From Gammaproteobacteria bacterium (GTDB lineage: Bacteria > Pseudomonadota > Gammaproteobacteria > JBFIID01): a DNA stretch of 36,245 bases. Where the stretch lies: the NCBI GenBank assembly GCA_041601415.1, contig JBFIID010000001.1, forward strand, positions 1-36,245, written 5' to 3'. The notes under the pieces were generated by a model, which did not search any database, was not told the origin of the DNA, and saw only the letters and a program-made list of their open reading frames with translations. Positions 6,642-32,687 of the stretch are shown here, piece after piece. Both the position numbers and the translations under genes were made by a program. The stretch's first letter is position 1, and each line of letters begins with the position of its first letter.

Positions 6642-6899
6642 GCAGCAATCCCTAGTAGGCTTTTCGCGGTTGATCACCGCTGACAATCTCAAACAGGCTC
6701 TTGTTAAAGCAGAACGTGATGAAGTAATTAGAGAATATCACATCATTGGATACGGGCTACATCTGTCTCGCCGGGCAGATCCGGATAGAAATTATTGACC
6801 TATGTTAGGTATTTTCTGGCAAACCCGAGCAATTTGGTACGGGAATGAGTGATCTGGTTCACAACAGTGTTAACCCATTAGAAATCATACATATATAGC

Positions 6900-6929
6900 T
6901 TGACACAAACACCTCTCACGGCGTATGTT
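6900..6929 (+). promoter_or_regulatory. Candidate sigma-70 promoter for the 6978 gene
   Basis: TTGACA at 6900-6905, an 18-nt spacer, then TATGTT at 6924-6929, about 50 nt upstream of the ATG. A perfect palindrome TGTTGC-GGT-GCAACA (6926-6940) overlaps the -10 element. Confidence 0.4.
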
Positions 6930-6977
6930 GCGGTGCAACAAATAATGCCCTGAGTGGGTTAAATACAGGTAAAGACT

Positions 6978-7334
6978 ATGAACGCTCAAATGATCACACT
7001 GTCACGCGACAGATGGAATGAACTGAGCACGGAAATTATGGAGTGTGCACTCCATGCCACCAATATTGCACTCACTGGCCTGCGCGGTATGTCTCTACGC
7101 AGCTTTCGTGTCATGAAGCTTGCTGAAAACAATCATCTGGCCAGGCTTGAACTGCTGAAAGCAGAGCCGGATCTGAAATCTGTGGTGGATCAGGAGTCAG
7201 ATATATTGCAGCGTACCCAGGATGAAATTCTGGAAGACGCACGCAACCTGATTCAGATCTCAATGTTCAATCAGGATGAAATGCGCTACTGGTTTGAAAG
7301 AATAACGGGGATCTGGCTAAAAACTGGAAAATAG
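6978..7334 (+). CDS. Hypothetical helical protein (118 aa)
   Basis: Clean ORF preceded by a promoter-like element and followed by a strong hairpin. I recognise no motif. A phasin-like fold is only a vague impression and is not claimed. Confidence 0.55.
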   Translation: MNAQMITLSRDRWNELSTEIMECALHATNIALTGLRGMSLRSFRVMKLAENNHLARLELLKAEPDLKSVVDQESDILQRTQDEILEDARNLIQISMFNQDEMRYWFERITGIWLKTGK

Positions 7335-7413
7335 ACCTGCCAAATACGGCACACGACCCGTTCGTGATGGCCTGTGGCAGTAGACTGAAACGCCGATCTG
7401 CGTGAAACTGGGG

Positions 7414-7450
7414 CAGTGGACAGGTGCTTTTACCTGTCCACTGTTTAATC
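7414..7450 (+). terminator. Hairpin terminator after the 6978-7334 gene
   Basis: Perfect 12-bp stem CAGTGGACAGGT / ACCTGTCCACTG (7414-7425 and 7432-7443) with a 6-nt loop, followed by TTTAATCT. The T-tract is short. Confidence 0.55.
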
Positions 7451-7478
7451 TAACCGCCAGGGAGGGTAATCAGTTCCG

Positions 7479-8051
7479 ATGCGCTGCTTCACAATTCTTC
7501 CCCTCCTGATCCTGCTGATGTCAACTACCCCGGTTGCTCATGCAGATGAGACTGACGACCTTGCCCTTGAGGCTCGACAGATCATCAAGGAATTCCGCAC
7601 ACGTCTGAAATTCACCATTAACGTAGGCATGCAGGATGCGGGTATTCCTGGCACGATTGACGGCTGTGCCTACCTGGCACCCGAAATAGCCCAGGAAATC
7701 TCCTTACACGAGGGCTGGCTCGTCGGCCGTACCAGCCTCAATACCCGAAACAGGGCCAATAAGCCCGATCCCTGGGAATCCCGGACTCTCATGTCCTTCG
7801 AGCAGCAGCACGCCGATGGCATCGATCTGGAAAGCCTGGAGGCGCAAACCGTTGAACAGGATCAGCAGGGGCGTCGATTCCGCTTCATGATGGCGATTCC
7901 GGCCGATAATGAATGTCTGAGTTGTCACGGCACAGAAATTTCTGATGTCGCAGCGAGAAAACTGGGTACACATTACAAACAGGATCAGACACGTGGCGAT
8001 GAGCCGGGCGGCATTCGTGGCGCCTTTACTCTGACCAAGGATCTGGATTAA
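7479..8051 (+). CDS. DUF3365 (Tll0287-like) c-type haem family periplasmic protein
   Basis: Signal peptide MRCFTILPLLILLMSTTPVAHA, a single CXXCH motif (CLSCHG) near the C-terminus, and GGGAGGG upstream of the ATG. Confidence 0.6.
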   Translation: MRCFTILPLLILLMSTTPVAHADETDDLALEARQIIKEFRTRLKFTINVGMQDAGIPGTIDGCAYLAPEIAQEISLHEGWLVGRTSLNTRNRANKPDPWESRTLMSFEQQHADGIDLESLEAQTVEQDQQGRRFRFMMAIPADNECLSCHGTEISDVAARKLGTHYKQDQTRGDEPGGIRGAFTLTKDLD

Positions 8052-16094: not shown

Positions 16095-16592
16095 ATGGAT
16101 AAGCAACGTCTGGAATTGTTACAGGGCATGCCCGTGTTTGGTGGCATTGATGAAAGTATTCTGCAGTCACTGGTTGATATGAGTGACACCGTAGAGGTAC
16201 CAGCAGGAAGCTTTTTCTTTCATGAGGGCGATGAAGAGCATTCCATGTATGTGCTGGAATCAGGCGAAGTCATTGTGCTTAAAAACTGGGAGGGACAGCA
16301 GTATTTTCTATCGCGGCTATCGCGTGGGGACTGTCTCGGAGAAATGGCAATGATTGACCTCGACCGACGTGCTGGATCGGTACTCGCCGTAAAGGATTGC
16401 AGCGCTCTGGTCATCACCACCGACCACCTGCACGAAATCTATCAACGTGATGTCACCCAGTTCGCAATGATTCAGATGAATCTGAGCCGTGAATTATCCC
16501 GGCGATTACGCAAGGCCGATGAACGGATTTTTCTACCCCGTATCCGCGCGGTTAGCGTCGGTGGCGGTTATGAATTCATCTCCGAGGTCTAA
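16095..16592 (+). CDS. Stand-alone cyclic-nucleotide-binding (CNB) domain protein
   Basis: CNB beta-barrel with a phosphate-binding cassette (GDCLGEMAMIDLDRRAGSVLA). I see no HTH or other output domain in its 165 aa. Confidence 0.75.
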   Translation: MDKQRLELLQGMPVFGGIDESILQSLVDMSDTVEVPAGSFFFHEGDEEHSMYVLESGEVIVLKNWEGQQYFLSRLSRGDCLGEMAMIDLDRRAGSVLAVKDCSALVITTDHLHEIYQRDVTQFAMIQMNLSRELSRRLRKADERIFLPRIRAVSVGGGYEFISEV

Positions 16593-18980: not shown

Positions 18981-21497
18981 TCAGTTGTCACTCTCTCTAA
19001 AAGAAGCAAGGTCATCAAATAATGACTGTTCGTTCTGTTTACTTTTTTGCATCGCCTGCTCCGCACGCTTTGCGATTCGCTGCATTTGTTCCAGCATCCG
19101 AATATTTTCCTCTCGCTGGTTGGTAGAGTTTTCGAATTTCTCCTGATCTTGCGTCCATAACTCTATATCGTCTTCTATCATCTTTCGTAATTCGGCGGCA
19201 GTGTCTTCCGTACGTTTCATCTCCTGTGTATTGATGATCTGTGCATTATTTGCCGCCTTTTCTGCGAGTTGCGCAGATATCAGTTGCTCACGCGCCTGTT
19301 CAGCCATGGCTTCAACAGCGTTGATCTCATCCTGTAGCTTGGCCTGTTCAATGTTATCAGTTTCCTCTTCTGCGCGTTGTAACTGATTCAACCTTTCTAC
19401 TTCATTCTCAGCCTTCAGTCTTGCTGCTTCCGCCTCTTCACGTGCCTGAAGCGTGAGTTTTAACTCTTCCCGAATCCGTCGAGCCTCCTCCTCCAGCGTC
19501 TGCTTCTCCTGTCTCAGCTTTTCCTCTCCCAGTTCACGCGACTGATGATGTGAGGTTTTGAGTTCACTGATAATCTGTTCAGCTTCTTCTGTGGCAGCGC
19601 GCCTGGCGACTTCAGCTGCGACACGTGCTCGTTGTGCCTGATGAAGTTGCTGCGTTGTTCTGGCAAATTCACTTTCCAGTTTCTTTCTCTCCGTACGAAT
19701 TCTTTCCTCGGCCTCCATGCGCAGGCGCTGCTCCATCTGTTCCTGTTCCTCTGCCTGTTTCTTTAACTGTAATTCTGCCTGCTGCTTGAGTCGCTGGACC
19801 TCAGCCAACTGTGTGCGATTCGCGACACTCTGCTGCTCCAGTAGACGATGTTTGTTTTCCATCTCTACGGCAGCCTGTTCTTTCATTTTCTGTACACGTT
19901 GTAGTTCTTCCGTATTCCTGACGAAAACCTCTTCAAGCCGGGCTTTTTCTTCACGCATTCTTCGCTCTGATTCGGCCTGTAGCTGTTGAATTCTCTGCTC
20001 TTCCTGCAGACGCGTTTGTTCTACTTCTTTCTCAGCCTGTTCCTTCGCCGTGCTGATTTCCTGCTTCATTCGCTGCGCTTCCTGCAGTAGCTGATTGACA
20101 CGTTCAGCCTCTGCATTCATTTTTTCACGTTCCAGACGCAGTTTTTCCTCCAGCTCTTCCTCCATCTGACGACGCGCCGCCTCGACGACACTCCTGAGGT
20201 TTTCGGCCTCCTGCATCTGCAAATCTGCTTTCGCCAGGTCCGCCTTCAAACTGGCCGCTCTGACGCCAACATCCAGTGCAGACCTGTCATCCTCTTCCTG
20301 ACTCTGTTCGCCTGTCTCAGGATCAGCTGAAGCAGACTCCTGTTTCTGAGCGGGTAATTTTTCCTGTTGGTAATTAATTTCGGTAATGGATTCACTACTG
20401 TCAGGTTCATCGTCGACAGCATCTGCAAGCACCTGTGTATCTACACTGGCCGCAAAGGGCGTATTCATAATGCCCGATTCCAGATAACTCACATCAAGTC
20501 CCATCTTGCTCAGAAGATAGGCTGCAACCGAGGCACGACTGCTCACCTCTGAATAGATAATGTATTTTGTGTCTGGCGTGAGTTCACTGACCCGCTGGCG
20601 TAATTCTTTGAGGGGTATATTGATACTGCCAGGGATACTGCAGGCGGCGTGCTCATCCTGAAAGCGAATATCCAGCCAGACCCCGCCCGCTTCAACCAGG
20701 CTTATACCCTCTTCATAGCTCACCGAATTGAGCACCGGTTTTTTAATGAGTTCCGCGAAATCATCCTTGGTCAGTCGCATTACGGATCCCTCCGTTAACA
20801 TAACAACAGAGGCATTTCGCCGGGCACCTGAGACGAGTGCTTCTTCTCCGAAACTCTCCCCGGCGCGCAATTCAGCGAGCTGCACATCCTTTCCATCATC
20901 GGTGCTGCGCAATACCATGCAGCGCCCCTGCTGAATGATGTAATAATAATCTCCGGGTTCGCCCTGGGTAATTACCTTATCACCCGGCTTATAAGTCACC
21001 TCTTCCATGAGGCTGAAGATGCGCTGGATATTCGCGGCGGGAATACGCGAGAATAATTCCGACTCAAGCATTGTGCTCATCCAGTCGGCCTCATCATCTT
21101 CATCAGTTATTGTTATACCGGATGTGTCCTGAACATCTTCTGCATCGAGAGCAAGAAGCCGGTTCAATAAATCCTTGTCAAAACGGATCAGGATTGATTC
21201 ATGTGTGCATCTCGCCGACATCTGCCTCGGCTGTAATTGTGCCAGCGCATTACGCGCACCATCAGTGTCCTCCAGAACTTTTTTCACCAGAGAACCATCG
21301 GCATCCATCTCGACCTGACCTTTGAGCAGATAGTAAGCGTAGTTGTCACGGTCACCCTGTTTGAAAACCAGCTTCCCTTTCGGGTATTTAAACAACCTTC
21401 CCTGTTTTACGAGTTGATCCTGATACTTTTGCGACAGGCCATTGATAGGAATGAGGTTTTTAATCCGGCTCAGCAATTCTTCCTGTTGATTATCCAT
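18981..21497 (-). CDS. CNB(degenerate)-CNB-rhodanese-like-long coiled-coil protein, paralog 1 (838 aa)
   Basis: aa 15-120: CNB-like barrel lacking the FGE/R[ST]A cassette. Acidic linker DEDDEADW. aa 140-255: canonical CNB (GESFGEEALVSGARRNASV). aa 260-345: rhodanese-like (VWLDIRFQDEH...INIPL) whose active-site loop reads YSEVSSRAS, with no Cys. aa 407-838 (nt 18984-20279): uninterrupted E/Q/R/K/A-rich sequence typical of a coiled coil. Confidence 0.8.
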   Translation of the reverse strand: MDNQQEELLSRIKNLIPINGLSQKYQDQLVKQGRLFKYPKGKLVFKQGDRDNYAYYLLKGQVEMDADGSLVKKVLEDTDGARNALAQLQPRQMSARCTHESILIRFDKDLLNRLLALDAEDVQDTSGITITDEDDEADWMSTMLESELFSRIPAANIQRIFSLMEEVTYKPGDKVITQGEPGDYYYIIQQGRCMVLRSTDDGKDVQLAELRAGESFGEEALVSGARRNASVVMLTEGSVMRLTKDDFAELIKKPVLNSVSYEEGISLVEAGGVWLDIRFQDEHAACSIPGSINIPLKELRQRVSELTPDTKYIIYSEVSSRASVAAYLLSKMGLDVSYLESGIMNTPFAASVDTQVLADAVDDEPDSSESITEINYQQEKLPAQKQESASADPETGEQSQEEDDRSALDVGVRAASLKADLAKADLQMQEAENLRSVVEAARRQMEEELEEKLRLEREKMNAEAERVNQLLQEAQRMKQEISTAKEQAEKEVEQTRLQEEQRIQQLQAESERRMREEKARLEEVFVRNTEELQRVQKMKEQAAVEMENKHRLLEQQSVANRTQLAEVQRLKQQAELQLKKQAEEQEQMEQRLRMEAEERIRTERKKLESEFARTTQQLHQAQRARVAAEVARRAATEEAEQIISELKTSHHQSRELGEEKLRQEKQTLEEEARRIREELKLTLQAREEAEAARLKAENEVERLNQLQRAEEETDNIEQAKLQDEINAVEAMAEQAREQLISAQLAEKAANNAQIINTQEMKRTEDTAAELRKMIEDDIELWTQDQEKFENSTNQREENIRMLEQMQRIAKRAEQAMQKSKQNEQSLFDDLASFRESDN

Positions 21498-21658: not shown

Positions 21659-24253
21659 TCAATCGTCTTCCAGATCAAATTGCATAGAGAGTTCATTAAT
21701 CAGTTGAAGATCGTGCTGCTTGACGTCTTTACTGGCCTGTTCTGCTCTGGCCAGAATACGTTGCATTTCCTCACGTTGACGTTGCTCCAGACTACGCTGC
21801 TCATCACTATTGGCGTGGAGGGTCTGTTCGGTGATCCATTCCTGCAGGTCTGCTTCCAGTTGCTGACGCAGACCTTCCTCAGCCTCCTGCTGTTGATCCA
21901 GCTTAAGCCGATTATTCTCCTGGGCTGATTCTGCATCGGCATGTACTCGGCGTGCACTACGCAACTGATCGGATGCCTCGTGCAAACGTTCCTCGGTACT
22001 AGCAATGTCCTTTCCAATCTGTTGCTTTATACTATCTCCGGTGGCCTGCTTTTCAAGTAACCGTTTGGTGGCCTGTAAACGTTCCAGATCCTGTTCGGCA
22101 CGCTGCACCGCAAGTCCTGCATCTCGACTCGCGGTGCGCGAGACTAATAACATCTGTTGAATCCGGCTGGCTTCTACTTCAAGTTCTTTACGCTGTTCCT
22201 GCAGGCGTTGCTCCTGCTCCTTCATTGCCGCCTCATGTTCACGCCTGTATTCTTCGACAATTGCCTGCGCTTCACGGTTGGCGGCAATGCGTGTTTCCTC
22301 TGCGGTCTGTTTATCCTTTTGTGCCTGCTCAAGTAACTGACTGTTGTTCGCAAACTCCTGCTCAAGCCTGCGACGTTCAGCCAGCACCTCTGCTCGCATT
22401 TTCCGTTGTAGTGCTTCTTCTTTCCTGATCCTTTCCAACTGTTGTTGTTCGAGCTGTTTTTCAGCGGCTTTCTGGGCTGCTTGCATCACCTCTTTCATGC
22501 GTTGCACTTCACTCAACTGCTGACGATTTTCTTCAACCGTCCTGGACATTTCTCTACGTTCTTCAATCAGTCGGGCCTCTGCCTCCTGTTTAAGCTGTTT
22601 GATGTGTTCCAGTTCCTGAGTATTCCTGGCCGCGATCTGCTGCAATTTCTCCCGCTCAACTTCGAGGTTACGTTCCGCCTGTGTTTCAATTTCACGGATA
22701 CGTTGCTCAACCTTTACATGTGCCTCATTCGACTGTTGATCGGCGATCTGCTTGGCCTTCGCGATCTCCTGTTTAATCTGCTCTGCCTCATCAAGCATGG
22801 CCTTGGCACGCAGATTCTGATGTTCGATTTTCTCACGTTCGAGACGGAGCTTTTCCTCCATATCCCGTTCAATCTTTTCCCGTGCGAGTTCGAGCTCATG
22901 CTTCATTTGCACCGCATCGGAAAGAGATTCATTAATGCGCTGTTCCTGCTCCTTAAGCTTCAACTCCTGCTCACGCATTTGTGCCTCAGCACGCTGCTTC
23001 GCTCTTGCACCTTCAAGCTCGGCCTGTTTTTCCAGTCTTGCGGCCTCCTGCAACCTGATATTTGCGCGCGACAATTCACTATCCAGGGCCGCTGCACGCA
23101 CATCGGCAAGCACAGTCGCTCCACGATCCGGGGCCAAATTAGCCGGTTCTACAGAAGGCCTGGCAGTTTCTGTCACAGGCGTAGGGCTGATCGAGTTAAG
23201 ACCCGTCTCAAGAAAATACACGTCATAACCGAGATTAATCAGTATGAATGCCGCCACAGCAGCGAGACTGCCGTCGTCACAACAGGCGATATATGTCGAA
23301 TTTTCGTCAAGCCTTCTATGTTGAGCCCGAACCAACGGGAGGGGTAAGTTCAGGCTGTTTTCCAGAGACTTCTCGGCATGAGCCTGGGTAGAACGAACAT
23401 CTAGCCACACAGCACCCTCAGATACTCGTACGCGCGCCGTGTCGTTATTAACACCCTTCAAAATCGGCTTCAGCAGTAATTCGGCAAAGTGTTCCCGGTT
23501 GAGCCGCATCAACTCGCCATCTGAATCCATCGTCACAGAGGCGCTACGAATGGCGTTTGCAATGAGAGCCTCCTCACCAAAACAGTCTCCGGTATCGAGT
23601 TGCGCCAGTACGATGTCTTTCATGCCCACCGGAGATCGACGTGTGACACGCGCCTTGCCACTCTTGATGATGTAGTAGTAATCGCCCGGTTCACCCTGAC
23701 AAATGACAATTTCTCCAGCTTTCACTGGAATCGATTCCATACGACTAAATACCATCTGTATATTTGCCGCGGAGATTCGGGAGAACAGGGGGGAATTGAG
23801 GAGAATACTCATCCAGTCATCGTCATCCTCCTCTTCAAGGTCATGCACTTCGAAGTCGGCCTCATGAAGATTCCTTACCTCATCAAGCAAGCTCTCAAGC
23901 AATGTCCGTGAAGTACGGAACAGGGTAACGTCACTCACTGCTTTTGCGGTCATCTGACGTGGACGTAACTGTGACAGGCGGTATCTGGCCTCGTCACTAC
24001 CACCTTCAACCGTTTTCATCATCTGTCCATCACACTCAAGCTGCAACTTACCTTCCAGCAGATAAAACACGTGATCGTCTTTATCTCCCTGCCGGAATAT
24101 TGTTTGTCCTGCTGGGTAAGGTATAAGCTCGGACTGCTTAACGAGTTTTTTCTGTAACTCCAGGGGGAGGGAATTCAGGGGGTCAAGATCACGGATCACT
24201 TCTGGCATCAGGGTGACCAGGCCGGGATCGGAATGTTTTTTCGCTTGTATCAT
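21659..24253 (-). CDS. CNB(degenerate)-CNB-rhodanese-like-long coiled-coil protein, paralog 2 (864 aa)
   Basis: Same domain order as paralog 1: degenerate CNB, EEEDDDDW linker, canonical CNB (GDCFGEEALIANAIRSASV), then a rhodanese-like domain with loop IACCDDGSLA in which Cys is retained. aa 383-864 (nt 21662-23107) are E/Q/R/K/A-rich coiled coil. No obvious SD precedes the ATG at 24253. Confidence 0.8.
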   Translation of the reverse strand: MIQAKKHSDPGLVTLMPEVIRDLDPLNSLPLELQKKLVKQSELIPYPAGQTIFRQGDKDDHVFYLLEGKLQLECDGQMMKTVEGGSDEARYRLSQLRPRQMTAKAVSDVTLFRTSRTLLESLLDEVRNLHEADFEVHDLEEEDDDDWMSILLNSPLFSRISAANIQMVFSRMESIPVKAGEIVICQGEPGDYYYIIKSGKARVTRRSPVGMKDIVLAQLDTGDCFGEEALIANAIRSASVTMDSDGELMRLNREHFAELLLKPILKGVNNDTARVRVSEGAVWLDVRSTQAHAEKSLENSLNLPLPLVRAQHRRLDENSTYIACCDDGSLAAVAAFILINLGYDVYFLETGLNSISPTPVTETARPSVEPANLAPDRGATVLADVRAAALDSELSRANIRLQEAARLEKQAELEGARAKQRAEAQMREQELKLKEQEQRINESLSDAVQMKHELELAREKIERDMEEKLRLEREKIEHQNLRAKAMLDEAEQIKQEIAKAKQIADQQSNEAHVKVEQRIREIETQAERNLEVEREKLQQIAARNTQELEHIKQLKQEAEARLIEERREMSRTVEENRQQLSEVQRMKEVMQAAQKAAEKQLEQQQLERIRKEEALQRKMRAEVLAERRRLEQEFANNSQLLEQAQKDKQTAEETRIAANREAQAIVEEYRREHEAAMKEQEQRLQEQRKELEVEASRIQQMLLVSRTASRDAGLAVQRAEQDLERLQATKRLLEKQATGDSIKQQIGKDIASTEERLHEASDQLRSARRVHADAESAQENNRLKLDQQQEAEEGLRQQLEADLQEWITEQTLHANSDEQRSLEQRQREEMQRILARAEQASKDVKQHDLQLINELSMQFDLEDD

Positions 24254-24396
24254 GGTTAAGACGTCTGGTCGCCCTGTAGATCTGGTTTTGTTTATCTCAT
24301 TAGAGTGTTCTCAACGTCCTGTCGGCACTGTAAATCATTCGCATGCCTCCTATTTATCAGGAATCCCCATTCCAGTGAAGTTGTGTGGCAACCAAC

Positions 24397-24412
24397 TGTG
24401 AATAGATTCACG
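24397..24412. promoter_or_regulatory. CRP/FNR-type palindrome TGTGA-N6-TCACG
   Basis: TGTGAATAGATTCACG matches the CRP core consensus TGTGA-N6-TCACA at 9 of 10 positions. It sits in the divergent intergenic region between paralog 2 (start 24253, minus strand) and the DUF465 gene (start 24507, plus strand). A TATGCT -10-like hexamer lies at 24472-24477. Confidence 0.45.
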
Positions 24413-24506
24413 CAAATACCCAATTATTAAGCATTTTCACTTAAGTCCTAGGGCAAAAAATACGCATCTGCTATGCTACTCAGCAACACGGACACCCCAA
24501 CACACA

Positions 24507-24716
24507 ATGACAGATTTCGAAACAGAAACAGCACTCAGAACTCGCCTGCAGGAACTTGAAATAGAGCATCGGGATCTGGATGACGTGATTGAAAACATGA
24601 TTCAGAATCTTTACGTTGATCAGCTACTTATGCGTCGATTAAAGAAGCGGAAACTGCAAATCAAGGATCAGATTATCAGACTACGTAGTGAGTTAATACC
24701 CGATATTGATGCATAG
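24507..24716 (+). CDS. DUF465 (YdcH-like) small coiled-coil protein
   Basis: 69 aa with the family hallmark LQELEIEHRDLDDVI...RRLKKRKLQIKDQIIRL. Confidence 0.7.
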   Translation: MTDFETETALRTRLQELEIEHRDLDDVIENMIQNLYVDQLLMRRLKKRKLQIKDQIIRLRSELIPDIDA

Positions 24717-24887
24717 TTGATCAGCACGGAATGAAGCTCCGACTTTGACTGTCGTCACAAAGTGACATATTTCGGCAGTAGCCATACCCGCCAGGACCAG
24801 CCGCAAACACTTACCGGAACAACAGAAAGATCATAACGCACTGTTTTTATTGCTATTTATTGCCTTTTACCTGACGATATTGGTATC

Positions 24888-24903
24888 TGGCACAGAACCT
24901 GCT
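24888..24903 (+). promoter_or_regulatory. Candidate sigma-54 (-24/-12) promoter
   Basis: TGGCACAGAACCTGCT against the consensus TGGCACG-N4-TTGCW. GG and GC have the exact canonical spacing, and its first nine bases, as I recall them, match the E. coli glnAp2 core. It lies 38 nt upstream of the ATG at 24941. Upstream there is a 10-nt-phased direct repeat TTTATTGC (24846-24853 and 24856-24863) and a palindrome GTCAC-AAA-GTGAC (24755-24767). Confidence 0.5.
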
Positions 24904-24940
24904 CTATCCACTATAGGAACAAACACAGCAGGGGATTCAA

Positions 24941-25201
24941 ATGCATTTCAACGAACTGAACCAGGTTTCATTCCGTGAAAAACAGTTGTTAAACGACATT
25001 TTTGCCTGTGAGCAAACTCTGGGCAGAAAAGAAGAAGAATTAATGGAAGACCTGGCCTACTATCAGGGCAGGTTGATGGCAGCTAAACAGTCCCCAACTC
25101 AAACCGAGTTATACCAGGAACACATTCATGCAATTCAGGCCCTGCTGGCTGAAATCTACCTGGATGCGGAAGTCGCTACTGAGGAATTCTGCTACGCCTG
25201 A
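24941..25201 (+). CDS. Hypothetical helical protein (86 aa)
   Basis: ORF with an AGGGGA SD 7 nt upstream, downstream of the sigma-54-like promoter, followed by a 9-bp hairpin. I recognise no motif. Confidence 0.55.
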   Translation: MHFNELNQVSFREKQLLNDIFACEQTLGRKEEELMEDLAYYQGRLMAAKQSPTQTELYQEHIHAIQALLAEIYLDAEVATEEFCYA

Positions 25202-25227
25202 GTAATACCGTTGTTCCACACACATTC

Positions 25228-25249
25228 GCCCAACAGATAACTGTTGGGC
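25228..25249 (+). terminator. Stem-loop after the 86-aa gene (possible terminator or attenuator)
   Basis: Perfect 9-bp stem GCCCAACAG / CTGTTGGGC with loop ATAA, 27 nt after the stop. No T-tract follows, so intrinsic termination is uncertain. Confidence 0.35.
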
Positions 25250-25383
25250 CACATACCACACCTCCTATTTAGCTCTTCCTGACACCCGAAACTGTGTGCT
25301 ATCCATTACAGTGCACAGACAGGGATATGATCTGTTATGCTTTCGCTATAGTGTACTAATCGGCAACCAGGAAGTGCTTACCG

Positions 25384-26226
25384 ATGGATTACCATATCAG
25401 CAAAAAAATCTTGATACTTGATGATCAGCCTGAGATCACCAGTATGCTTGAGATCCAGATAGGTCAGACGTTTGACTGTGTCTTTGTTAACGATCCCTCA
25501 GAAGCCCTGTCCCTGCTGCTTGCAGAAGGGCCGTTTGCTGTAATCATGTCTGATTACCAGATGCCGGGAATGGACGGCGTTACCTTCCTGCAGGAGGCCA
25601 ATGCAAGAAGTCCAGACAGCATTCCAATAATGCTGACCTCTCATATCGATATAGACATTGCGGTTGCGGCCTTGCATGAAGGCAATATTTTCCGGTTTCT
25701 GCGCAAGCCCTGGGAACGGGATGTCATCGTCAAGTCCATCACTGATGCAATGGAACTCTATCGGATAAAAGTCTCGGAACGACTACTGAAAAGAGATCTT
25801 GAACAGGCCAATGAGGAATTGTCGGCTAAGGTTCAGCAACTGATGGAAAGCAATAGCCTGCTGCAACACTGGGTGGAATTCAGCCCGGCAGTAGTGTACT
25901 CACTCGAAGAGCATGATGACGGTTATAAAACCAGTTATGTGAGCAAAAACTTTGAAGATTTGTGTGGCTATGATCGTACCGAATTGTTATCCAATCCGAA
26001 GTTCTGGCTGGATCTGATCCATCCCGATGACCGTTCCAGCGCGATAAAAACAATCATGAACGCTCTGAGCTCGGATCAGGATCCGGGCGTCTACTCGTAT
26101 CGTATCAAACACCGAAACGGTGACTACATAACAATCCAGGATGCCTCGAGAATCGCCTATAACCCGGTCAATAATCGCAAGGAACTGATTGGTGCATGGA
26201 CCAGAATTAATACCACAGCCAACTAG
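25384..26226 (+). CDS. Response regulator: receiver (REC) domain, coiled-coil linker, PAS domain; no enzymatic or DNA-binding output
   Basis: REC with an intact acidic pocket (LILDDQ), phospho-acceptor Asp (VIMSDYQMPGMDG), Thr/Ser (MLTS) and Lys (FLRKPW). A helical linker follows (LKRDLEQANEELSAKVQQLMESN), then a PAS fold (SPAVVYSLEE...YVSKNFEDLCGYDRTELL...IHPDD...YRIKHRNGDY). Confidence 0.8.
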   Translation: MDYHISKKILILDDQPEITSMLEIQIGQTFDCVFVNDPSEALSLLLAEGPFAVIMSDYQMPGMDGVTFLQEANARSPDSIPIMLTSHIDIDIAVAALHEGNIFRFLRKPWERDVIVKSITDAMELYRIKVSERLLKRDLEQANEELSAKVQQLMESNSLLQHWVEFSPAVVYSLEEHDDGYKTSYVSKNFEDLCGYDRTELLSNPKFWLDLIHPDDRSSAIKTIMNALSSDQDPGVYSYRIKHRNGDYITIQDASRIAYNPVNNRKELIGAWTRINTTAN

Positions 26227-26252
26227 CTGGTTTTCTGTTCTTATCTGAAATC

Positions 26253-27533
26253 TCAAAGGCGTTTCGAGAGTTCCTGGCTGGTCTCAGAGAGCCGTTTGAT
26301 GAGTAATTTCTGAAACAGTTTATTGGTGCGCATCTGCACCTGAAGTGACGCCCATTCGGGCAGTGGCGTATCAATTTTAAGCAGAATCACATGATCCAGC
26401 GCCCTTACAGTCGCTGTTCGTTTACCACCGTCCAGATAGGCCATTTCCCCAAAGCAATCACCCGCAGATAAATTTGCAATGATCTTGCGGTTTCTTTCGA
26501 CGGTGACCTGTCCGGAAATGATGATATAAAAACCATCCTGATCATCACCCTCTTCAATCAACGCGCTGTTCCTTGGAAAGGATACCCACTCAGCAACGTC
26601 AACCACCTCTTCTAGCTCCAGTTCAGAGAACTCTTTAAAAAATACCAGCCCCTTGAGGAGTTCCAGTTTCTGCTGATCATTCATCAGACGGACGGGATCC
26701 TGCAGGTCTTCCAGTACCAGCCGCAGATCATCTGCCATTTGCGTACCGTTCTGATAACGATCAGGTAGTTTCTTTTGCAGTGCCCGTTCTACAACCTGAT
26801 TGAGTGATTGCGGTAATTCAGGGCGGAGCTCAATAACCGGCTGTTGTGCCTTATTGATTACATTGTTGATCAGTCCGGAGATACCCTTGGCCGCAAACGG
26901 CGTAGACCCGACCAGCATTTCGTACAACACAACACCAAGAGAAAACAGATCCGTCTGATGGGTGAGTTGTCCATCTGCAGCCTGCTCTGGCGACATGTAC
27001 ATGGGTGAACCATACCAACCGAGAATCTGTGTCTTATCGGCCATGGTACGCTGCGCGATACCGAAATCCCCTATTTTGACCTGTCCCTGCTCCGTCAGCA
27101 TGATATTGGCGGGTTTAATATCCCGGTGGGTAATACCGCGCTCATGTGCGTAGTTCAACGCATCGGCACAATTCATAATGTAGCGAACCACCGTTTCTAC
27201 CGGAAGTAAAACATCTTTTTTGCAGAAGGATCTCAGGGTGTCAGCATGTTCAACAAATTCCATGGAGATATAGGGCTGACCGTCGGCGTCTCCCGCATCA
27301 TAGACTTTCAGAATATTCGGATGATCCAGTGAGCCTGCGGCCTGTGCCTCGTTGAAAAAGAGTTTGCGCGCTTTATGCACCTCTTCTTCTTCAACTTCTT
27401 CGATGGTGCTAACCTTAATCGCAACCTGACGATCAACGAACGGGTCATAGCCGATATAGACCATTCCCATGGCCCCCTTACCGGCGACCCCTGTGATCTC
27501 ATACTTCCCGATTTTTTCCGGCAGGGATTCCAT
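26253..27533 (-). CDS. Hanks-type Ser/Thr protein kinase fused to a C-terminal cyclic-nucleotide-binding domain
   Basis: Kinase motifs: GKGAMGMVY, VAIKV, HRDIKPANIML, IGDFGIA, MSPEQ. The C-terminal CNB has a canonical cassette GDCFGEMAYLDGGKRTATVRA. The start overlaps the stop of the upstream gene by 1 nt (TAATG at 27533). Confidence 0.85.
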   Translation of the reverse strand: MESLPEKIGKYEITGVAGKGAMGMVYIGYDPFVDRQVAIKVSTIEEVEEEEVHKARKLFFNEAQAAGSLDHPNILKVYDAGDADGQPYISMEFVEHADTLRSFCKKDVLLPVETVVRYIMNCADALNYAHERGITHRDIKPANIMLTEQGQVKIGDFGIAQRTMADKTQILGWYGSPMYMSPEQAADGQLTHQTDLFSLGVVLYEMLVGSTPFAAKGISGLINNVINKAQQPVIELRPELPQSLNQVVERALQKKLPDRYQNGTQMADDLRLVLEDLQDPVRLMNDQQKLELLKGLVFFKEFSELELEEVVDVAEWVSFPRNSALIEEGDDQDGFYIIISGQVTVERNRKIIANLSAGDCFGEMAYLDGGKRTATVRALDHVILLKIDTPLPEWASLQVQMRTNKLFQKLLIKRLSETSQELSKRL

Positions 27534-30500
27534 TATGCAACCTCTTCCATCACTACGGATTCGGCGACAGCCAGACCCTGTATATAATCCACGCCTATGT
27601 CCTTCAACGACTCTATGGTCTTCTCATTATTGACCTGATCAGCAATGGTCTTTTTACCCATAAGGTGACCAATCTCATTCATTGATCTAACCAATGCGAG
27701 GTCATTAGGGTTTTTATGCATGCCACGAACGAACAAACCGTCCATCTTGATGAAATCAATTGGCAGAGTATTCAGATAGCCCTGCGCTGTGTCACATTGC
27801 CCAAACCCACCCATACTAAACTTGCATCCGAATTCTTTCATGGTACGAATAAAGCGTTCCGCCTCCTGTTGATTATCAATCACAACTGACTGTTTAATCT
27901 CGAAACAGACTTTCCCCGCAGGCACCCTGGACTCGGTCAACTGCGCAATAATATATTCAATTAACTTATCATCACACAATGAAAGTTCACTGATGTGAAT
28001 CGCACACACCGCCACATCTTTTAGTGTCTTTCTATGGGCAAACATCCATTGCAGCGATCCACGGATCAGCATTCTATCAATCTCGGGACTCTGTTTATTC
28101 AGATGTGCGGCCTGTAGAAAATCCTCCTGTGGGATGAGGATGCCATCCTCGTCTTCAATCCCCAGTATGATCTCATATTGTTCTTTGTCCTTGCTGTCCG
28201 AATGCAGGGGAACTATGCGTTGATAACGCAGCTTCAGAGATTCAGATTTGACGACTTTCTCGACCAGTGCGCGCCAGTCCTTTTTAACCTCTTCGAGCCC
28301 GGTATCTGCCTCATCCTGTGTATGGACATATATCTGGTTTTTTCCCTGTTTCTTCGCGTTGGCCGCCGCACCTGTCACTTCATCAAGCAATTTTTCGGCC
28401 GAGATATCCAGCTCCTGCAGTGACAAAAGACCAATCGATGCACCCACTGTGAACATCTGTTCCTGCCATTTAAAACGGAAGGCCTTAATGTCCTCCAGCA
28501 AAGACTGGAGCTGCTGTTCTGCAGCCTGCTTGTCAACGTCCTTCATCAGTACTGAAAAGCGATCTCCCCCCAGACAACCCGGCAATGGTTGTGGAAAATG
28601 CTCTCGCATAAACTTAGCCAGGGACTTTAACAGGTCATCGGCAGCGTCCTGGCCAAACTTTCTGTTCATTGCTGCTACGCAGTCAAAATTAACTTCTGCC
28701 AGGATGGAGTCTACTCCTGTCTGTTCAACGGCAAGTTGAACTTGTTTGATTTTTTCCATCATATGGCGGCGATTTGGTAGCCCTGTAATCGCTTCATTAT
28801 TGGCCTGCTGGCCTATTTCGTCATGCATCTTATACAGGGTGGTTCGCATCGCACGGTCAACCGGCGGCAGGGTAGGCTTTTCGAGCAGTACGGCAGTACC
28901 ACGGCGTAGCTGCATCGCCAGTTCCTGTAAGGTCATATTCAGGGCTTTATTACCGTTAGCGTCAACAAACACATAGGGGTTGTAGTTGTCACCAATCCAG
29001 GCCAGCGTTACACAATCATCATTTTCAGATGCTTTTTTGATCCCTAACAAGTCGCCGATTTGCATTTTCATCGCACGTTCCAGCCACAGACGCCAGTCAG
29101 CGGGTTGTCGATCTGCATTCGCTAATGGATCAATGTCTGCCGATTTGCCACCACGACGTTTGCGTAACAGTTCCTGCTGCTGCTGATACTGTTTCACTAC
29201 CTGATCAACATTGGACTCATAACGTTCCTGTTGCTGGTGAGCCAGGTGACTGATTTCCGGCATCATCTCGGCAAAGACATTGGCGTCCTGATCATAGTTC
29301 TGATTAATACGCTCCACGATGGTGTCGAGCTGTTCGATGGTCTCGCTATCACCGGCAACTTTAAGATCCGCTATCTGATTCAGTACGGCTCTTGCAGGAT
29401 GCGCTTCATCACTCAGAAAAGCGCCATCCTTGATCGCGAGTTTCTGGATAGTTCCCTGCATCTGGGTAAGACGTGACTTGATCCCTGAACCGAGAAGGTG
29501 ATCAACATCGAATGAACTAACGAATTTGTCAGCCATATTCAGTGCATTTGCATGCGCCTGATTAATTTCAATCGGTGTATCGTCACCCACACGACTTTTA
29601 AGAATTCGTTTAATTCTTGACATGTTATCTTCATTGCCCAGTTCATTCTTCCAGCCTGAGCGATTTTCCCTTTGCAGGACAGACAGGGCCTCCAGAATAT
29701 CTTCACTGGCATATTGCTGGTAGGAAGCGGGCCCCGTATTTTGGCCTGCGACTTCAGAACCCGTGCTCATAGCAGGCACCGGGTTCGTCCCGAACTGTCC
29801 ACCGCCGCTCGAAGACAATGGTGGTGCAACTGAGGGGGCAGCACCTCCCATTGCACCTGCACCTACAGGGCTGCCGGAAGGCATTGAATGCGGTGTCATA
29901 CCCGGTGCATGACCGGCAACCGGTGTGGGCACAACCGCAGAGAAATTACCCTGTTTCAGATTCATCAGATTCTGCATTGCCTGCATGGTCTGACCCGCAG
30001 GTGTGCGGGGAGCCAATTGATTGTCTACCTGACCCGTTACACCTGGACCTGATGGCATCGCAGGCTGCGGGTGAGCTGTTGCAGGAGCTGTCCCTGTCGC
30101 CAACGGTGTCTGGCCGGGTACAGCAGCAGCGCCAGTCGTCGCAGCTGTCTGCCCTGACGTATTTCCCTGAGGACTCACAGCACTACCAGTGGGGGGAATG
30201 CTGTCTGCCGTATTACTCAATTCCTGGGTGTTTGACAACGGCTCAACCACCTCATCAATCTGGCGAGTCGGTTTTGACGTAGGTTTTTTCCAGCCTTCTG
30301 TCTCTGGCTTCTTCTCGGGGAGGCTATAGTATTTGCGTAAAGACTCGTCCAGATCACGGAAGAAAAACTCCAGCCGAGGCACCACGGACTCTTCATAGAC
30401 ACGAAATAAAAGTTCGTTGGTATCGTAACTCAGGTCTATCTGATCCTTGGCGTTCGAAAAGGCAGAGGTGATGGCCGAAACCCCTAGCGGGTTAGTGCCT

Positions 30501-31321
30501 CGTTCCATGGGAAGATTAAACAACTGGCTCAGACGAATTTCTATCTTGTCTAACAATTCGCTATAGCGTGGTTCTGCACGCGAGACAATTTCGGAAGAGG
30601 TCAGAAGATCCTCGAAATCGTCTTTTTCGATCAGTTTCAGTTCACCAGACTGATTAATATTAGAAAAGTCCGGTGCCTGGCCCGATTGCCCCGTCTGTTC
30701 ATACGTTTCCTGTATTTCGTTGAGAAAATAGCTGCTGATGTCAGCCTGTTTCTTTTTTAGCAGGTTCATACATCCGAAATAATCACTCTGCTGCACATTA
30801 TTTTTTGCATCTCGAGCGGCAATAAATAATTGCTCATCGGCCTGTTCAAAGAAGGTCTTTATCAGTGATTTAAGATGCTTTGCAGACAGGAACCAGGTCT
30901 CGTCGAGCACCTTGGCATTTCTTTCCTGTGGCAAGTCAGAACGCCCCAGAGTTGCCTCTGCTTTTTGCTGCTCTGCCAGCAAGGTAAGCGCCTTGAGTGC
31001 ATCTTCCGCAGGGTTTATAAATGCAGCGCCGATCCCTGTGTTGAATACACGCGCGATACTGCCCTGCATTTTGAAAGCGCGCCTCGCCTCATTCAGTTCG
31101 ACATTAAAACTGATGGTTATCTTGTCATCACGCGACAAAAAGCTGATTGCTTCTGCATTGGCCTGAGGGTTTACCAGCGCCAGAAACATTCCCCCGGGGC
31201 AAAAATCCCTTATTTTGCACTGAATATTGGCTGATTTTGCGGTATTCAGAGACGCATCGAGGGATAGAGACTGCCGTACAAATGCACGTTGGTTATTACC
31301 GGAAGAATTATCAGCAGACAT
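27533..31321 (-). CDS. PilZ - DUF1631 - degenerate GGDEF - degenerate EAL multidomain protein (1262 aa)
   Basis: The N-terminal PilZ has RxxxR (RAFVR) and a D-x-C-x-x-G variant of DxSxxG (DFCPGG). DUF1631 hallmarks are present (ADEQLFIAARDAKNNVQQSDYFGCMNLLKKK near the start, LAWIGDNYNPYVFVDANGNK near the end). A P/G/A/T/S-rich insert of about 170 aa lies within it (aa 365-535). The GGDEF domain reads GGDRF (nt 28556-28570) and also lacks the upstream Asp, Lys and His residues. The EAL domain reads YEIILG, with N to H (AIHIS), DDFG to GGFG and EGVE to DQVN. Confidence 0.8.
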   Translation of the reverse strand: MSADNSSGNNQRAFVRQSLSLDASLNTAKSANIQCKIRDFCPGGMFLALVNPQANAEAISFLSRDDKITISFNVELNEARRAFKMQGSIARVFNTGIGAAFINPAEDALKALTLLAEQQKAEATLGRSDLPQERNAKVLDETWFLSAKHLKSLIKTFFEQADEQLFIAARDAKNNVQQSDYFGCMNLLKKKQADISSYFLNEIQETYEQTGQSGQAPDFSNINQSGELKLIEKDDFEDLLTSSEIVSRAEPRYSELLDKIEIRLSQLFNLPMERGTNPLGVSAITSAFSNAKDQIDLSYDTNELLFRVYEESVVPRLEFFFRDLDESLRKYYSLPEKKPETEGWKKPTSKPTRQIDEVVEPLSNTQELSNTADSIPPTGSAVSPQGNTSGQTAATTGAAAVPGQTPLATGTAPATAHPQPAMPSGPGVTGQVDNQLAPRTPAGQTMQAMQNLMNLKQGNFSAVVPTPVAGHAPGMTPHSMPSGSPVGAGAMGGAAPSVAPPLSSSGGGQFGTNPVPAMSTGSEVAGQNTGPASYQQYASEDILEALSVLQRENRSGWKNELGNEDNMSRIKRILKSRVGDDTPIEINQAHANALNMADKFVSSFDVDHLLGSGIKSRLTQMQGTIQKLAIKDGAFLSDEAHPARAVLNQIADLKVAGDSETIEQLDTIVERINQNYDQDANVFAEMMPEISHLAHQQQERYESNVDQVVKQYQQQQELLRKRRGGKSADIDPLANADRQPADWRLWLERAMKMQIGDLLGIKKASENDDCVTLAWIGDNYNPYVFVDANGNKALNMTLQELAMQLRRGTAVLLEKPTLPPVDRAMRTTLYKMHDEIGQQANNEAITGLPNRRHMMEKIKQVQLAVEQTGVDSILAEVNFDCVAAMNRKFGQDAADDLLKSLAKFMREHFPQPLPGCLGGDRFSVLMKDVDKQAAEQQLQSLLEDIKAFRFKWQEQMFTVGASIGLLSLQELDISAEKLLDEVTGAAANAKKQGKNQIYVHTQDEADTGLEEVKKDWRALVEKVVKSESLKLRYQRIVPLHSDSKDKEQYEIILGIEDEDGILIPQEDFLQAAHLNKQSPEIDRMLIRGSLQWMFAHRKTLKDVAVCAIHISELSLCDDKLIEYIIAQLTESRVPAGKVCFEIKQSVVIDNQQEAERFIRTMKEFGCKFSMGGFGQCDTAQGYLNTLPIDFIKMDGLFVRGMHKNPNDLALVRSMNEIGHLMGKKTIADQVNNEKTIESLKDIGVDYIQGLAVAESVVMEEVA

Positions 31322-31604
31322 TACATCGCACCATCCATCTTTTCGAACACGCTTTCATAACGCAGAGTATACCTACTATACACAGATGATTTTAGTAGTA
31401 AATTCATAAGGATGTCATCTCTCCGCAACGCTAAAGGCATAATTGGCGGGTCAGTGAAATGGGTGCTATTGAAAGCAGCAGAATTGTCTACGTCGCAAAA
31501 CCACTAGCAAGTCACAGATTGATTTCTAATTGCTGCCGAGAGTCGAATATACTCTGTTACCCTAATTTCAAATATGTGGCCTTCGCATTCAGGAAAAGAC
31601 CGTC

Positions 31605-32687
31605 ATGCAGTCCCCCGATACGATTGAACATCTTGATACTCTGCTCACCGAAGCACGTCGAAATGAATCGACCTGGAAGCGTTTTCAGCAGATGGAATTA
31701 AGCCTGATGTCCTGTGAATCATTACAGGACCTGTTTTCCCTGATTTATCAGCAGACCCGTCGCGAACTTGACTGTGAGTACAGTCGATTACAGCTACTCG
31801 ATCCTGGTTTCATTCTGCAGCGACTGCTAGAAGAATCCGGTATTCAGACTGGTGCAGAAACGATAGAACTGACATTTTGTGACCGTGAGCATCCGTTTAA
31901 TCTGCGCTATCCAGAATGTCATCGACCTGTACTGGGGCAATACGAAACGCTTCAGCATGCCGAGTTCTTTGCCAACGGCATAACCCCCCGATCTTTTGCC
32001 CTGCTACCGCTGATTCGAGGTGGCGTCCTGATTGGTAGCCTGAACCTCGGCAGTCTTGATGCAAACAGGTTTCATCATGCCAGTGCAACCGACTTTCTAC
32101 AGCATTTCTCGTCGGTCATTGCGGTCTGTCTCGAATCAATGGAGGGGCGTGAACGCCTCAAACACCTGGGCCTGAAAGATGCCCTGACCGGAATTAATAA
32201 TCGCCGTTTTTTTGACCAGCGTCTGCTTGAAGAAGTATCACGTGCCCAACGTAACAACCTGAGCCTGAGTGCCCTGTTTATCGACATTGATCATTTCAAA
32301 TCAATCAATGACCAGTATGGACATAAGATGGGCGACTTTATTTTACAGCAGGTCGCTCAGAATATTCGTGTCCAGTTACGAACCACAGACACCGTCGCGC
32401 GTTATGGCGGAGAGGAATTTGCCGCTTTACTCTGTGCAGACACCATGACCGCGGTTGAGATTGCAGAACGTATTCGCATCAGCACCCATCAGCACAGTAC
32501 ACCGAGCCCGGATAGCGGTGAACCCATACAGGTTAGCGTCTCGATTGGCATCGCCAGTTTGACTGATCTTGATCGCAGTTTAAGCAGTGATGATATTGCC
32601 CAGCAGTTAATCCACCTGTCAGATACCGCGCTCTATCATGCAAAGTCGGCGGGCAGGAACCGTACGATTATTTATCAGCCAGAGTGA
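31605..32687 (+). CDS. GAF/DUF484-like sensor domain diguanylate cyclase (intact GGEEF with I-site)
   Basis: DALTGINNRRFF, IDIDHFKSINDQYGHKMGD, and RTTD-TVARY-GGEEF (an RxxD I-site at canonical spacing). The N-terminal 170 aa look GAF-like (LPLIRGGVLIGSLNLGS). Confidence 0.85.
   Translation: MQSPDTIEHLDTLLTEARRNESTWKRFQQMELSLMSCESLQDLFSLIYQQTRRELDCEYSRLQLLDPGFILQRLLEESGIQTGAETIELTFCDREHPFNLRYPECHRPVLGQYETLQHAEFFANGITPRSFALLPLIRGGVLIGSLNLGSLDANRFHHASATDFLQHFSSVIAVCLESMEGRERLKHLGLKDALTGINNRRFFDQRLLEEVSRAQRNNLSLSALFIDIDHFKSINDQYGHKMGDFILQQVAQNIRVQLRTTDTVARYGGEEFAALLCADTMTAVEIAERIRISTHQHSTPSPDSGEPIQVSVSIGIASLTDLDRSLSSDDIAQQLIHLSDTALYHAKSAGRNRTIIYQPE

Follow-up and report, generated by a model that had tools for sequence, protein, structure and literature searches.

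The window analysed here is a stretch of 36,245 nucleotides (nt), positions 1 to 36,245 of contig JBFIID010000001.1 from a Gammaproteobacteria bacterium (assembly GCA_041601415.1), and our subject is a pair of adjacent genes on its reverse strand: a putative receptor for cyclic di-GMP (c-di-GMP) and a protein kinase that accompanies it in many diverged loci. The receptor gene (27533..31321, −) is a complete open reading frame (ORF) of 1262 amino acids (aa), whose residue numbers are used throughout. On the basis of the ORF and Pfam, it encodes a PilZ domain, a DUF1631 core, a degenerate GGDEF domain and a degenerate EAL domain. The kinase gene (26253..27533, −; 426 aa) encodes a Hanks-type Ser/Thr kinase (residues 1–280) followed by a cyclic nucleotide monophosphate (cNMP)-binding domain (residues 281–426). 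The stop codon of the receptor gene and the start codon of the kinase gene overlap in the sequence TAATG (27531..27535, −), with one base common to both. An original prediction, made from the DNA letters alone, had proposed this four-domain make-up, had quoted the motifs RAFVR, DFCPGG, GGDRF, AIHIS, GGFG, DQVN, KMD and IQG, and had pointed out the TAATG overlap. Pfam finds all four domains in the intact ORF, every quoted motif is present, and the overlap recurs in the orthologous locus L001.

The extent of the receptor is well defined. The ATG at 31321 is preceded by an in-frame stop, with no other start codon between the two, and in an alignment the N-terminus matches that of P0002, a 70%-identical orthologue. 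A Pfam scan of the full-length protein placed DUF1631 at residues 132–717 (246.6 bits), GGDEF at residues 844–996 (64 bits) and EAL at residues 1024–1254 (144 bits). The PilZ domain (PF07238) was not reported in this full-length scan; it was detected when the N-terminal 135 residues were scanned alone, at residues 10–113, with 23.3 bits against a cutoff of 22.5 (E 8e-5).

The same prediction had stated that DUF1631 proteins normally stand alone, a view that overlooked a large family with exactly the PilZ-DUF1631-GGDEF-EAL architecture. An exhaustive HMMER search with receptor residues 1–835 against 1.84 billion cluster representatives gave 2716 matches at E<=1e-3 and 242 at E<=1e-30, and nearly all of the best 150 are 1150–1350 aa long. 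When six receptor regions were mapped onto these best 150 matches, PilZ was found in 140, the DUF1631 regions in about 150, and PilZ, GGDEF and EAL together in 115. A word-indexed search had recovered the four-part architecture in just two further proteins. The notion that the fusion is rare is ruled out by the exhaustive search; since the latter recovers a large family, the apparent rarity was an artefact of sensitivity. Among the 115 full-architecture representatives, the EAL domain is intact at all eight scored catalytic positions in 71, and the GGDEF site is intact in 17. The family as a whole looks like a group of phosphodiesterases that sense c-di-GMP through PilZ and in which the GGDEF domain is, as a rule, degenerate. 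Because most members combine an active-looking EAL with a PilZ sensor, the ancestral job was probably c-di-GMP-responsive turnover of c-di-GMP. The window receptor is, judged by its sequence, a catalytically inactive member of this large and uncharacterised family of the Gamma- and Betaproteobacteria. In literature searches, neither the PilZ-DUF1631-GGDEF-EAL family nor its association with a Hanks kinase that binds cNMP was found described, and a cultured member, Marinobacter litoralis WP_199005825.1, carries at NCBI merely the name "DUF1631 family protein". The family provides domain-fusion evidence that DUF1631, a widespread domain, belongs to c-di-GMP signalling.

The PilZ domain (30941..31294, −; residues 10–127) was delimited from Pfam, AlphaFold2 (AF2), Foldseek and the motifs in 140 family members. 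The AF2 model of residues 1–130, with a predicted local distance difference test (pLDDT) score of 82.8, comprises a disordered N-terminal loop, a six-stranded barrel (residues 17–27, 33–41, 44–49, 67–76, 79–93 and 96–101) and a C-terminal helix (residues 106–127). In a Foldseek search of the PDB with this model, the best matches were all PilZ domains at a probability of 1.0, the majority of them in c-di-GMP-bound structures, and they included BcsA, the P. aeruginosa PilZ protein 4xrn, PA0012, Alg44, MotI, MapZ and YcgR. The RxxxR motif of the N-terminal loop reads RAFVR (R12 and R16), and the (D/N)xSxxG motif reads DFCPGG (D39, C41 in place of Ser, and G44). These positions are almost invariant in the family: R12 is kept in 129/129 sequences, R16 in 130/130 and G44 in 139/140, while the position of D39 is occupied by Asp in 126 and Asn in 13. 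At the Ser position, 131 of 140 members have Cys and 6 have Ser, which defines a family signature, (N/D)xCxxG. The model and the Foldseek matches confirm the PilZ fold, and the domain appears able to bind c-di-GMP. The codon of C41 lies at 31199–31201; its thiol is conserved at a PilZ position that contacts c-di-GMP, and one idea is that binding could be under redox control.

The DUF1631 core follows in three regions and a linker. The N-terminal helical region (30287..30934, −; residues 130–345) was assigned from PF07793, a partial match to the NCBIfam PacR family and the family alignment. The linker (29705..30286, −; residues 346–539) is of low complexity and rich in Pro, Ala, Gly, Ser and Thr, as seen in the sequence, and evolves fast, as seen in its nonsynonymous divergence (dN). 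The second region (29117..29704, −; residues 540–735) is a helical bundle with a conserved HPAR motif, based on precomputed PF26671 and AF2, and the C-terminal region (28832..29116, −; residues 736–830) is a small beta domain with a connecting helix, based on PF26670 and AF2. PF07793 scores 246.6 bits against a threshold of 33.7, and the sub-regions DUF1631_2nd and DUF1631_C are precomputed assignments. The NCBIfam PacR model NF058594 reaches 55.7 bits against a cutoff of 1200 and matches residues 145–375 only, far from full-length equivalence. The third DUF1631 region is missing from the receptor; in the alignment with P0003, some 115 residues are deleted. In the AF2 model of residues 540–838 (pLDDT 86), the helical bundle is followed by the small beta domain and then by a helix leading into the GGDEF domain. 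Foldseek found nothing significant in the PDB for residues 540–838, the best match having an E of 0.15 with a weak resemblance to Tudor/PWWP/KOW barrels. The proposal that the C-terminal domain is a second PilZ-like barrel was rejected, as a profile–profile comparison with the family PilZ alignment gave a probability of 4%. The linker is 45% identical to that of the orthologue and is a possible target of multi-site phosphorylation; low-complexity inserts also occur in stand-alone DUF1631 proteins, such as a Gly/Thr-rich run in P0022.

The degenerate GGDEF domain (28322..28810, −; residues 838–1000) was delimited by Pfam and by alignment to RbdA. D327 and K332 of PleD, which are metal and phosphate ligands of diguanylate cyclases, correspond in this alignment to N878 and A883, and H340 corresponds to a Gln; N335 and D344 are kept. 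The active-site motif reads GGDRF (residues 918–922) and thus departs from GG[D/E]EF, according to the active-site criteria that we applied to both the GGDEF and the EAL domains (Seshasayee et al., PMC2952852), with positions read off the alignment to RbdA. The RxxD motif of the inhibitory site (I-site), expected five residues upstream of GGDRF, is absent, and the stretch there reads FPQPLPGCLGGDRF. In the absence of RxxD, the domain has no I-site with which to sense c-di-GMP.

The degenerate EAL domain (27560..28252, −; residues 1024–1254) was identified by Pfam, by alignment to RbdA and by the same published criteria (PMC2952852). Three of the seven Mg-site positions are kept, RocR E175, E265 and K316 being represented by E1050, E1141 and K1192. 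The other four are changed: N233 to H1109, E268 to Q1144, D295 to G1171 and E352 to D1228. Two of the four positions for c-di-GMP recognition are kept, Q161 as Q1034 and D318 as D1194, and R179 and D296 are replaced by G1054 and G1172. At the level of motifs, the stretches AIHIS, CFEIKQ, GGFG and DQVN are changed, and KMD and IQG are retained. In most family members, those with an otherwise intact EAL included, Gly or Ser takes the place of the EALxR arginine (RocR R179), and its replacement by G1054 is therefore a family trait and not local decay. EAL phosphodiesterases presumed to be active do not usually lack this arginine. Given the changes at catalytic positions in both domains, the diguanylate cyclase and phosphodiesterase activities of the receptor are very probably gone. 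This result agrees with the earlier claim of no turnover activity, as both domains fail the published catalytic-site criteria. The companion claim, that the protein has up to three c-di-GMP reader modules, goes too far: it is plausible for the PilZ domain and falls for the GGDEF domain, which has no I-site; for the EAL domain, only two of the four recognition residues speak for it.

We considered whether the EAL domain could still be a phosphodiesterase with a non-canonical site, so that the receptor, as is probable for the majority of its relatives, would be an enzyme under PilZ control. The equivalents of E175, E265, K316, D318 and Q372 are retained, an intact EAL prevails in the family, and the changes of E352 to Asp and N233 to His are conservative and could in principle bind metal. 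However, the Asp pair of DDFG is Gly and E268 is Gln, and substitutions at these positions abolish activity (PMC2952852). Moreover, the closest orthologue differs at four of the sites (N for H, A for E, and ND for GG), indicating relaxed constraint on the catalytic positions specifically. Residual phosphodiesterase activity therefore appears highly improbable to us.

The kinase retains its catalytic and phosphate-binding-cassette residues. The window kinase scores 161 bits with Pfam Pkinase and 67 bits with cNMP_binding. We scanned one genome per bacterial species with a 5-sequence alignment as the query and obtained 80 loci, about 60 of them complete. The loci are mostly from metagenome-assembled genomes of Gammaproteobacteria, and also from Ectothiorhodospiraceae, Alcanivoracaceae, Methylococcaceae, Marinobacter litoralis and many Thiobacillus, T. 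denitrificans DSM 12475 among them. A kinase–cNMP gene (~415–450 aa) lies immediately downstream of the receptor gene on the same strand in 26 of the ~60 complete loci; no locus that lacks this adjacency has such a kinase nearby. The neighbouring kinases are 47–53% identical to the window kinase over their full length (88% for L001). All 26, the window's counted, keep the G-loop, the VAIK lysine (K40), the alpha-C glutamate (E62), HRD, DFG, SPE, the activation-loop T168 and the cNMP phosphate-binding cassette G-E...R-[ST]-A.

The arrangement of the two genes is equally persistent. The gap from receptor stop to kinase start is −8 nt in 3 loci, −4 in 4, −1 in 3, 0 in 3, 2–17 in 8 and 45–74 nt in 5, so that the genes overlap or abut (−8 to 0 nt) in 13/26. 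The N-terminal regions of the receptors in these loci are only 24–32% identical to that of the window receptor in tblastn, L001 (70%) excepted. The kinase is also the only gene of the window neighbourhood that is conserved beyond L001, the closest relative, and no gene for a PP2C phosphatase or an FHA protein emerged as a conserved neighbour when the neighbourhoods of the loci were compared. The link between receptor and kinase, originally drawn from the single overlap, is thus stronger than first proposed, since the pair is conserved in 26 diverged loci. The two genes are probably on the same transcript and translationally coupled.

Three of the loci (L014, L023 and L028) carry two further kinase and cNMP-binding paralogues each, within 10 kb upstream of the receptor gene. 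They are 45–49% identical to the window kinase, except for one copy in L014, which is cut by the edge of the locus and is 39% identical.

The presence of the kinase coincides with the decay of the EAL domain. In the 26 kinase-linked loci, the EAL has lost at least 3 of 10 scored positions in 24, has 1–2 changes in 1 and is intact in 1, and the GGDEF is intact in none. In the 34 loci without the kinase, the corresponding numbers are 2, 14 and 18, and the GGDEF is intact in 7. In a phylogeny built from the full alignment by neighbour-joining only, with 100 bootstraps, the kinase-linked receptors form one clade (88/100). This clade consists of a main subclade (100/100), the window receptor with L001 (100/100), L053, and L005 with L006. 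The implied ancestor of the window receptor and L001 kept the equivalents of E175, N233, E265, D296, K316 and Q372 and had lost D295, whereas the main subclade kept the equivalents of D295 and E265 and lost those of E175, N233, K316 and Q372. The two sets of lost residues barely overlap, which indicates that the EAL domain was inactivated at least twice, after the acquisition of the kinase. As the bootstrap gave no branching order within the clade, the argument for independent losses rests on these near-disjoint sets. The family thereby offers a natural series of conversions from phosphodiesterase to receptor, made more than once.

In the main subclade (e.g. L003, L008, L019 and L022), a gene for a GlnS-like glutaminyl-tRNA synthetase lies divergently upstream of the pair. 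Downstream are LexA- and ImuB-like genes recognised by eye, an ORF with a weak RecA-like match, and DgkA, a diacylglycerol kinase confirmed by Pfam. This housekeeping context indicates a chromosomal, vertically inherited placement and not a mobile element.

Such synteny raises the question of whether the two genes are merely co-transcribed and inherited together, with the receptor acting independently, for instance by using its DUF1631 core to regulate c-di-GMP homeostasis in the manner of PacR. The pairing goes back to a single clade, and stand-alone DUF1631 proteins function in the absence of a kinase (PMC9543026). Much of the clade shares the GlnS, LexA-ImuA-ImuB and DgkA flanks, and vertical inheritance therefore explains part of the conservation of the pair. 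However, the pair persists at 24–32% identity of the receptor N-terminal regions, and the kinase is the only gene shared between the window/L001 pair, L005/L006 and the main subclade, whose other flanking genes differ. The overlapping or abutting frames in half of the loci, and an EAL inactivation that is both concentrated in the kinase-linked clade and recurrent there, are also difficult to reconcile with simple neighbourhood. We thus regard an independent receptor as unlikely, although it is the strongest of the competing explanations.

The inactive domains are not simply eroding. Between the window receptor and that of L001, dN is 0.07 for the DUF1631 C-terminal region, 0.14 for the degenerate GGDEF, 0.15 for the DUF1631 second region, 0.16 for the degenerate EAL, 0.17 for PilZ and 0.54 for the linker. 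Synonymous sites are saturated in this comparison (pS, the proportion of synonymous differences, 0.68–0.82), so that only dN, and no dN/dS, can be compared between the domains. The degenerate GGDEF and EAL domains are under purifying selection, as constrained as the PilZ and DUF1631 regions, and are not decaying. Their dN, close to that of PilZ, argues for a non-catalytic role of the dead domains.

One such role would be that of FimX or LapD, in which the degenerate EAL provides the high-affinity c-di-GMP site that drives the output, with the PilZ domain accessory or binding its own EAL. The tandem of degenerate GGDEF and EAL domains fits this explanation, as do the His at the Asn position and the loss of DDFG, both common to FimX, the purifying selection on the EAL, and the retained equivalents of Q161, D318, K316 and Q372. 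An interaction between a PilZ protein and the FimX EAL domain has also been described (10.1101/814665). On the other hand, the equivalents of the recognition residues R179 and D296 are Gly, whereas the PilZ motifs are conserved throughout. An EAL pocket is not maintained in the clade as a whole, given the losses of E175, N233, K316 and Q372 in the main subclade, and the GGDEF-EAL part is nearest in sequence to RbdA, an active enzyme. We consider a receptor driven by its EAL domain to be improbable, somewhat more so than an independently acting one.

We therefore favour, with a probability of roughly 55%, the explanation that the receptor is a PilZ-based c-di-GMP sensor or scaffold that works with the cNMP-gated kinase, and that EAL activity was lost in this clade. 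The PilZ domain would bind c-di-GMP, possibly with a contribution from the degenerate EAL, and binding would shift the conformation of the scaffold formed by DUF1631 and the degenerate GGDEF and EAL domains. The scaffold would then act with the co-expressed kinase as an activator, an inhibitor, a docking platform or a substrate. The output of Ser/Thr phosphorylation would thereby depend on c-di-GMP and cAMP/cGMP together. If the pair does work together, it would be a meeting point of c-di-GMP, cAMP/cGMP and protein phosphorylation.

Several points weigh against this explanation. The PilZ motif has Cys for the canonical Ser, and the Pfam score of the domain is barely over the threshold. Gene adjacency and overlap show co-expression and not interaction, and the kinase-linked loci are all from metagenome-assembled genomes. 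L005, with a fully intact EAL, and L006, with one change, carry the kinase with an intact or nearly intact EAL domain, and a dead EAL is thus no prerequisite for the kinase. The neighbour-joining bootstrap did not settle the branching order inside the kinase-linked clade, and the association between kinase and EAL decay amounts to a single acquisition of the kinase and two or three episodes of decay, not 24 independent ones. Finally, we infer c-di-GMP binding, enzyme inactivity, contact between the two proteins and the direction of the signal.

A more specific version of the sensor/scaffold explanation can be formulated from the residues that are conserved specifically in the kinase-linked clade. 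These residues (W743, D787, T797, L798, M803, R806 and R807) cluster in the DUF1631 C-terminal domain, which for this reason is a candidate kinase interface or phospho-acceptor region, a lead suggested by the alignment rather than a result. Tentatively, and with less confidence than in the general explanation, we propose that the two proteins form a dedicated node in which PilZ-bound c-di-GMP and cAMP/cGMP jointly gate phosphorylation, that the lineage repeatedly gave up its phosphodiesterase after capturing the kinase, and that the DUF1631 C-terminal domain (W743, D787, T797, R806 and R807) is the kinase interface or phospho-acceptor. If true, such a two-protein node would give DUF1631/PacR proteins their first mechanistic role, as adaptors in c-di-GMP signalling.

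The surroundings of the pair contain further signalling genes. The divergent intergenic region 5' of the receptor gene (31322..31604, 283 bp) has sigma-70-like hexamers that are not above chance, the counts of the promoter and terminator scans being at chance level. It has no riboswitch, and an Rfam scan of 24200–32000 found no credible riboswitch or other RNA. On the far side of this region, divergent from the receptor gene, lies a gene for a DUF484/GAF-GGDEF protein (31605–32687, +), a position conserved only in L001. The protein has a GGEEF active site, an RTTD I-site and a DIDHFKSIND motif; with these canonical motifs it is a probable active diguanylate cyclase beside the dead-enzyme receptor. 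At the other end, a response regulator with receiver and PAS domains and no output domain (25384–26226, +), also conserved only in L001, is encoded in convergent orientation to the kinase gene, and the two stop codons are 26 bp apart.

Four proteins with cNMP-binding domains are encoded within ~11 kb, the kinase (26253–27533, −) being one. A stand-alone cNMP-binding protein of 165 aa is encoded at 16095–16592 (+), and two paralogues of 838 and 864 aa are encoded at 18981–21497 (−) and 21659–24253 (−). Each paralogue has two cNMP-binding domains, one rhodanese domain and ~500 residues without a Pfam match, and both are conserved only in L001. In 14 related loci (L022 and 13 others), a GAF-GAF-PAS class III adenylate/guanylate cyclase (826 aa) lies ~2 kb upstream of the pair; in L022 it is located at 5400–7880 (+). 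This gene is absent from the window, and it may be a local source of cNMP for the kinase or reflect shared synteny only.

Comparison with known systems places the individual parts of the receptor in a familiar context. The only studied DUF1631 protein is the stand-alone PacR (XC_3388) of Xanthomonas campestris, in which mutant phenotypes and the transcriptome showed that deletion of pacR deregulates c-di-GMP genes, biofilm, motility and virulence (PMC9543026). The window protein shares the DUF1631 core with PacR, with its N-terminal, second and C-terminal sub-regions. However, PacR-type proteins have ~750 aa and no PilZ, GGDEF or EAL domain, and the window protein is 15–26% identical to them over short stretches.

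The closest solved relative of the GGDEF-EAL part is RbdA (PA0861, PDB 5xgb), which aligns with it end to end at an E of 3e-63 and differs in its N-terminal sensor modules. RbdA is an active phosphodiesterase. Its aligned sequence keeps GGDEF, the RxxD I-site, N, ExxE, DDF and ExxE, all of which the window protein has lost. FimX of Pseudomonas and Xanthomonas is, like the window protein, a receptor with tandem degenerate GGDEF and EAL domains, has His at the position of the Asn metal ligand and has lost DDFG. It also works with a PilZ protein, which in Xanthomonas binds the FimX EAL domain (10.1101/814665). FimX differs in its N-terminal REC and PAS domains and its retained EALxR arginine, in a PilZ partner that is a separate protein and does not bind c-di-GMP, in its output to type IV pili, and in having neither DUF1631 nor a kinase partner; the match (E 4e-35) is weaker than that to RbdA.

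LapD of Pseudomonas fluorescens likewise has degenerate GGDEF and EAL domains, and it senses c-di-GMP through its EAL and signals by conformational change. LapD is, however, a membrane protein with periplasmic and HAMP domains that controls a periplasmic protease, modules that are absent here; the partial NCBIfam match reaches 128 bits against a cutoff of 1020, and the alignment has an E of 4e-22. Upstream of the window GGDEF, Pfam finds only PilZ and DUF1631, with no REC-PAS region as in FimX and no transmembrane, periplasmic or HAMP segment as in LapD. The likeness to FimX and LapD that had been proposed at the outset thus holds for the degenerate tandem, but the sequence is nearest to RbdA and the N-terminal modules of both receptors are absent.

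Pkn1 (MXAN_1467) of Myxococcus xanthus, in which a PilZ domain is fused to a Hanks-type Ser/Thr kinase (10.1101/814665), is a precedent for the coupling of c-di-GMP sensing to Ser/Thr phosphorylation. Pkn1 combines the two functions in one polypeptide and has no DUF1631, GGDEF-EAL or cNMP-binding domain, whereas here they reside in separate proteins encoded by adjacent genes. No published example of a c-di-GMP receptor genetically tied to a Ser/Thr kinase gated by cyclic nucleotides emerged from the literature searches. To conclude, the components (c-di-GMP receptors made of PilZ or inactive GGDEF/EAL domains, and bacterial Hanks kinases) and the logic of the receptor are well known, while the conserved pairing of receptor and kinase and the recurrent conversion of an enzyme into a sensor are new.

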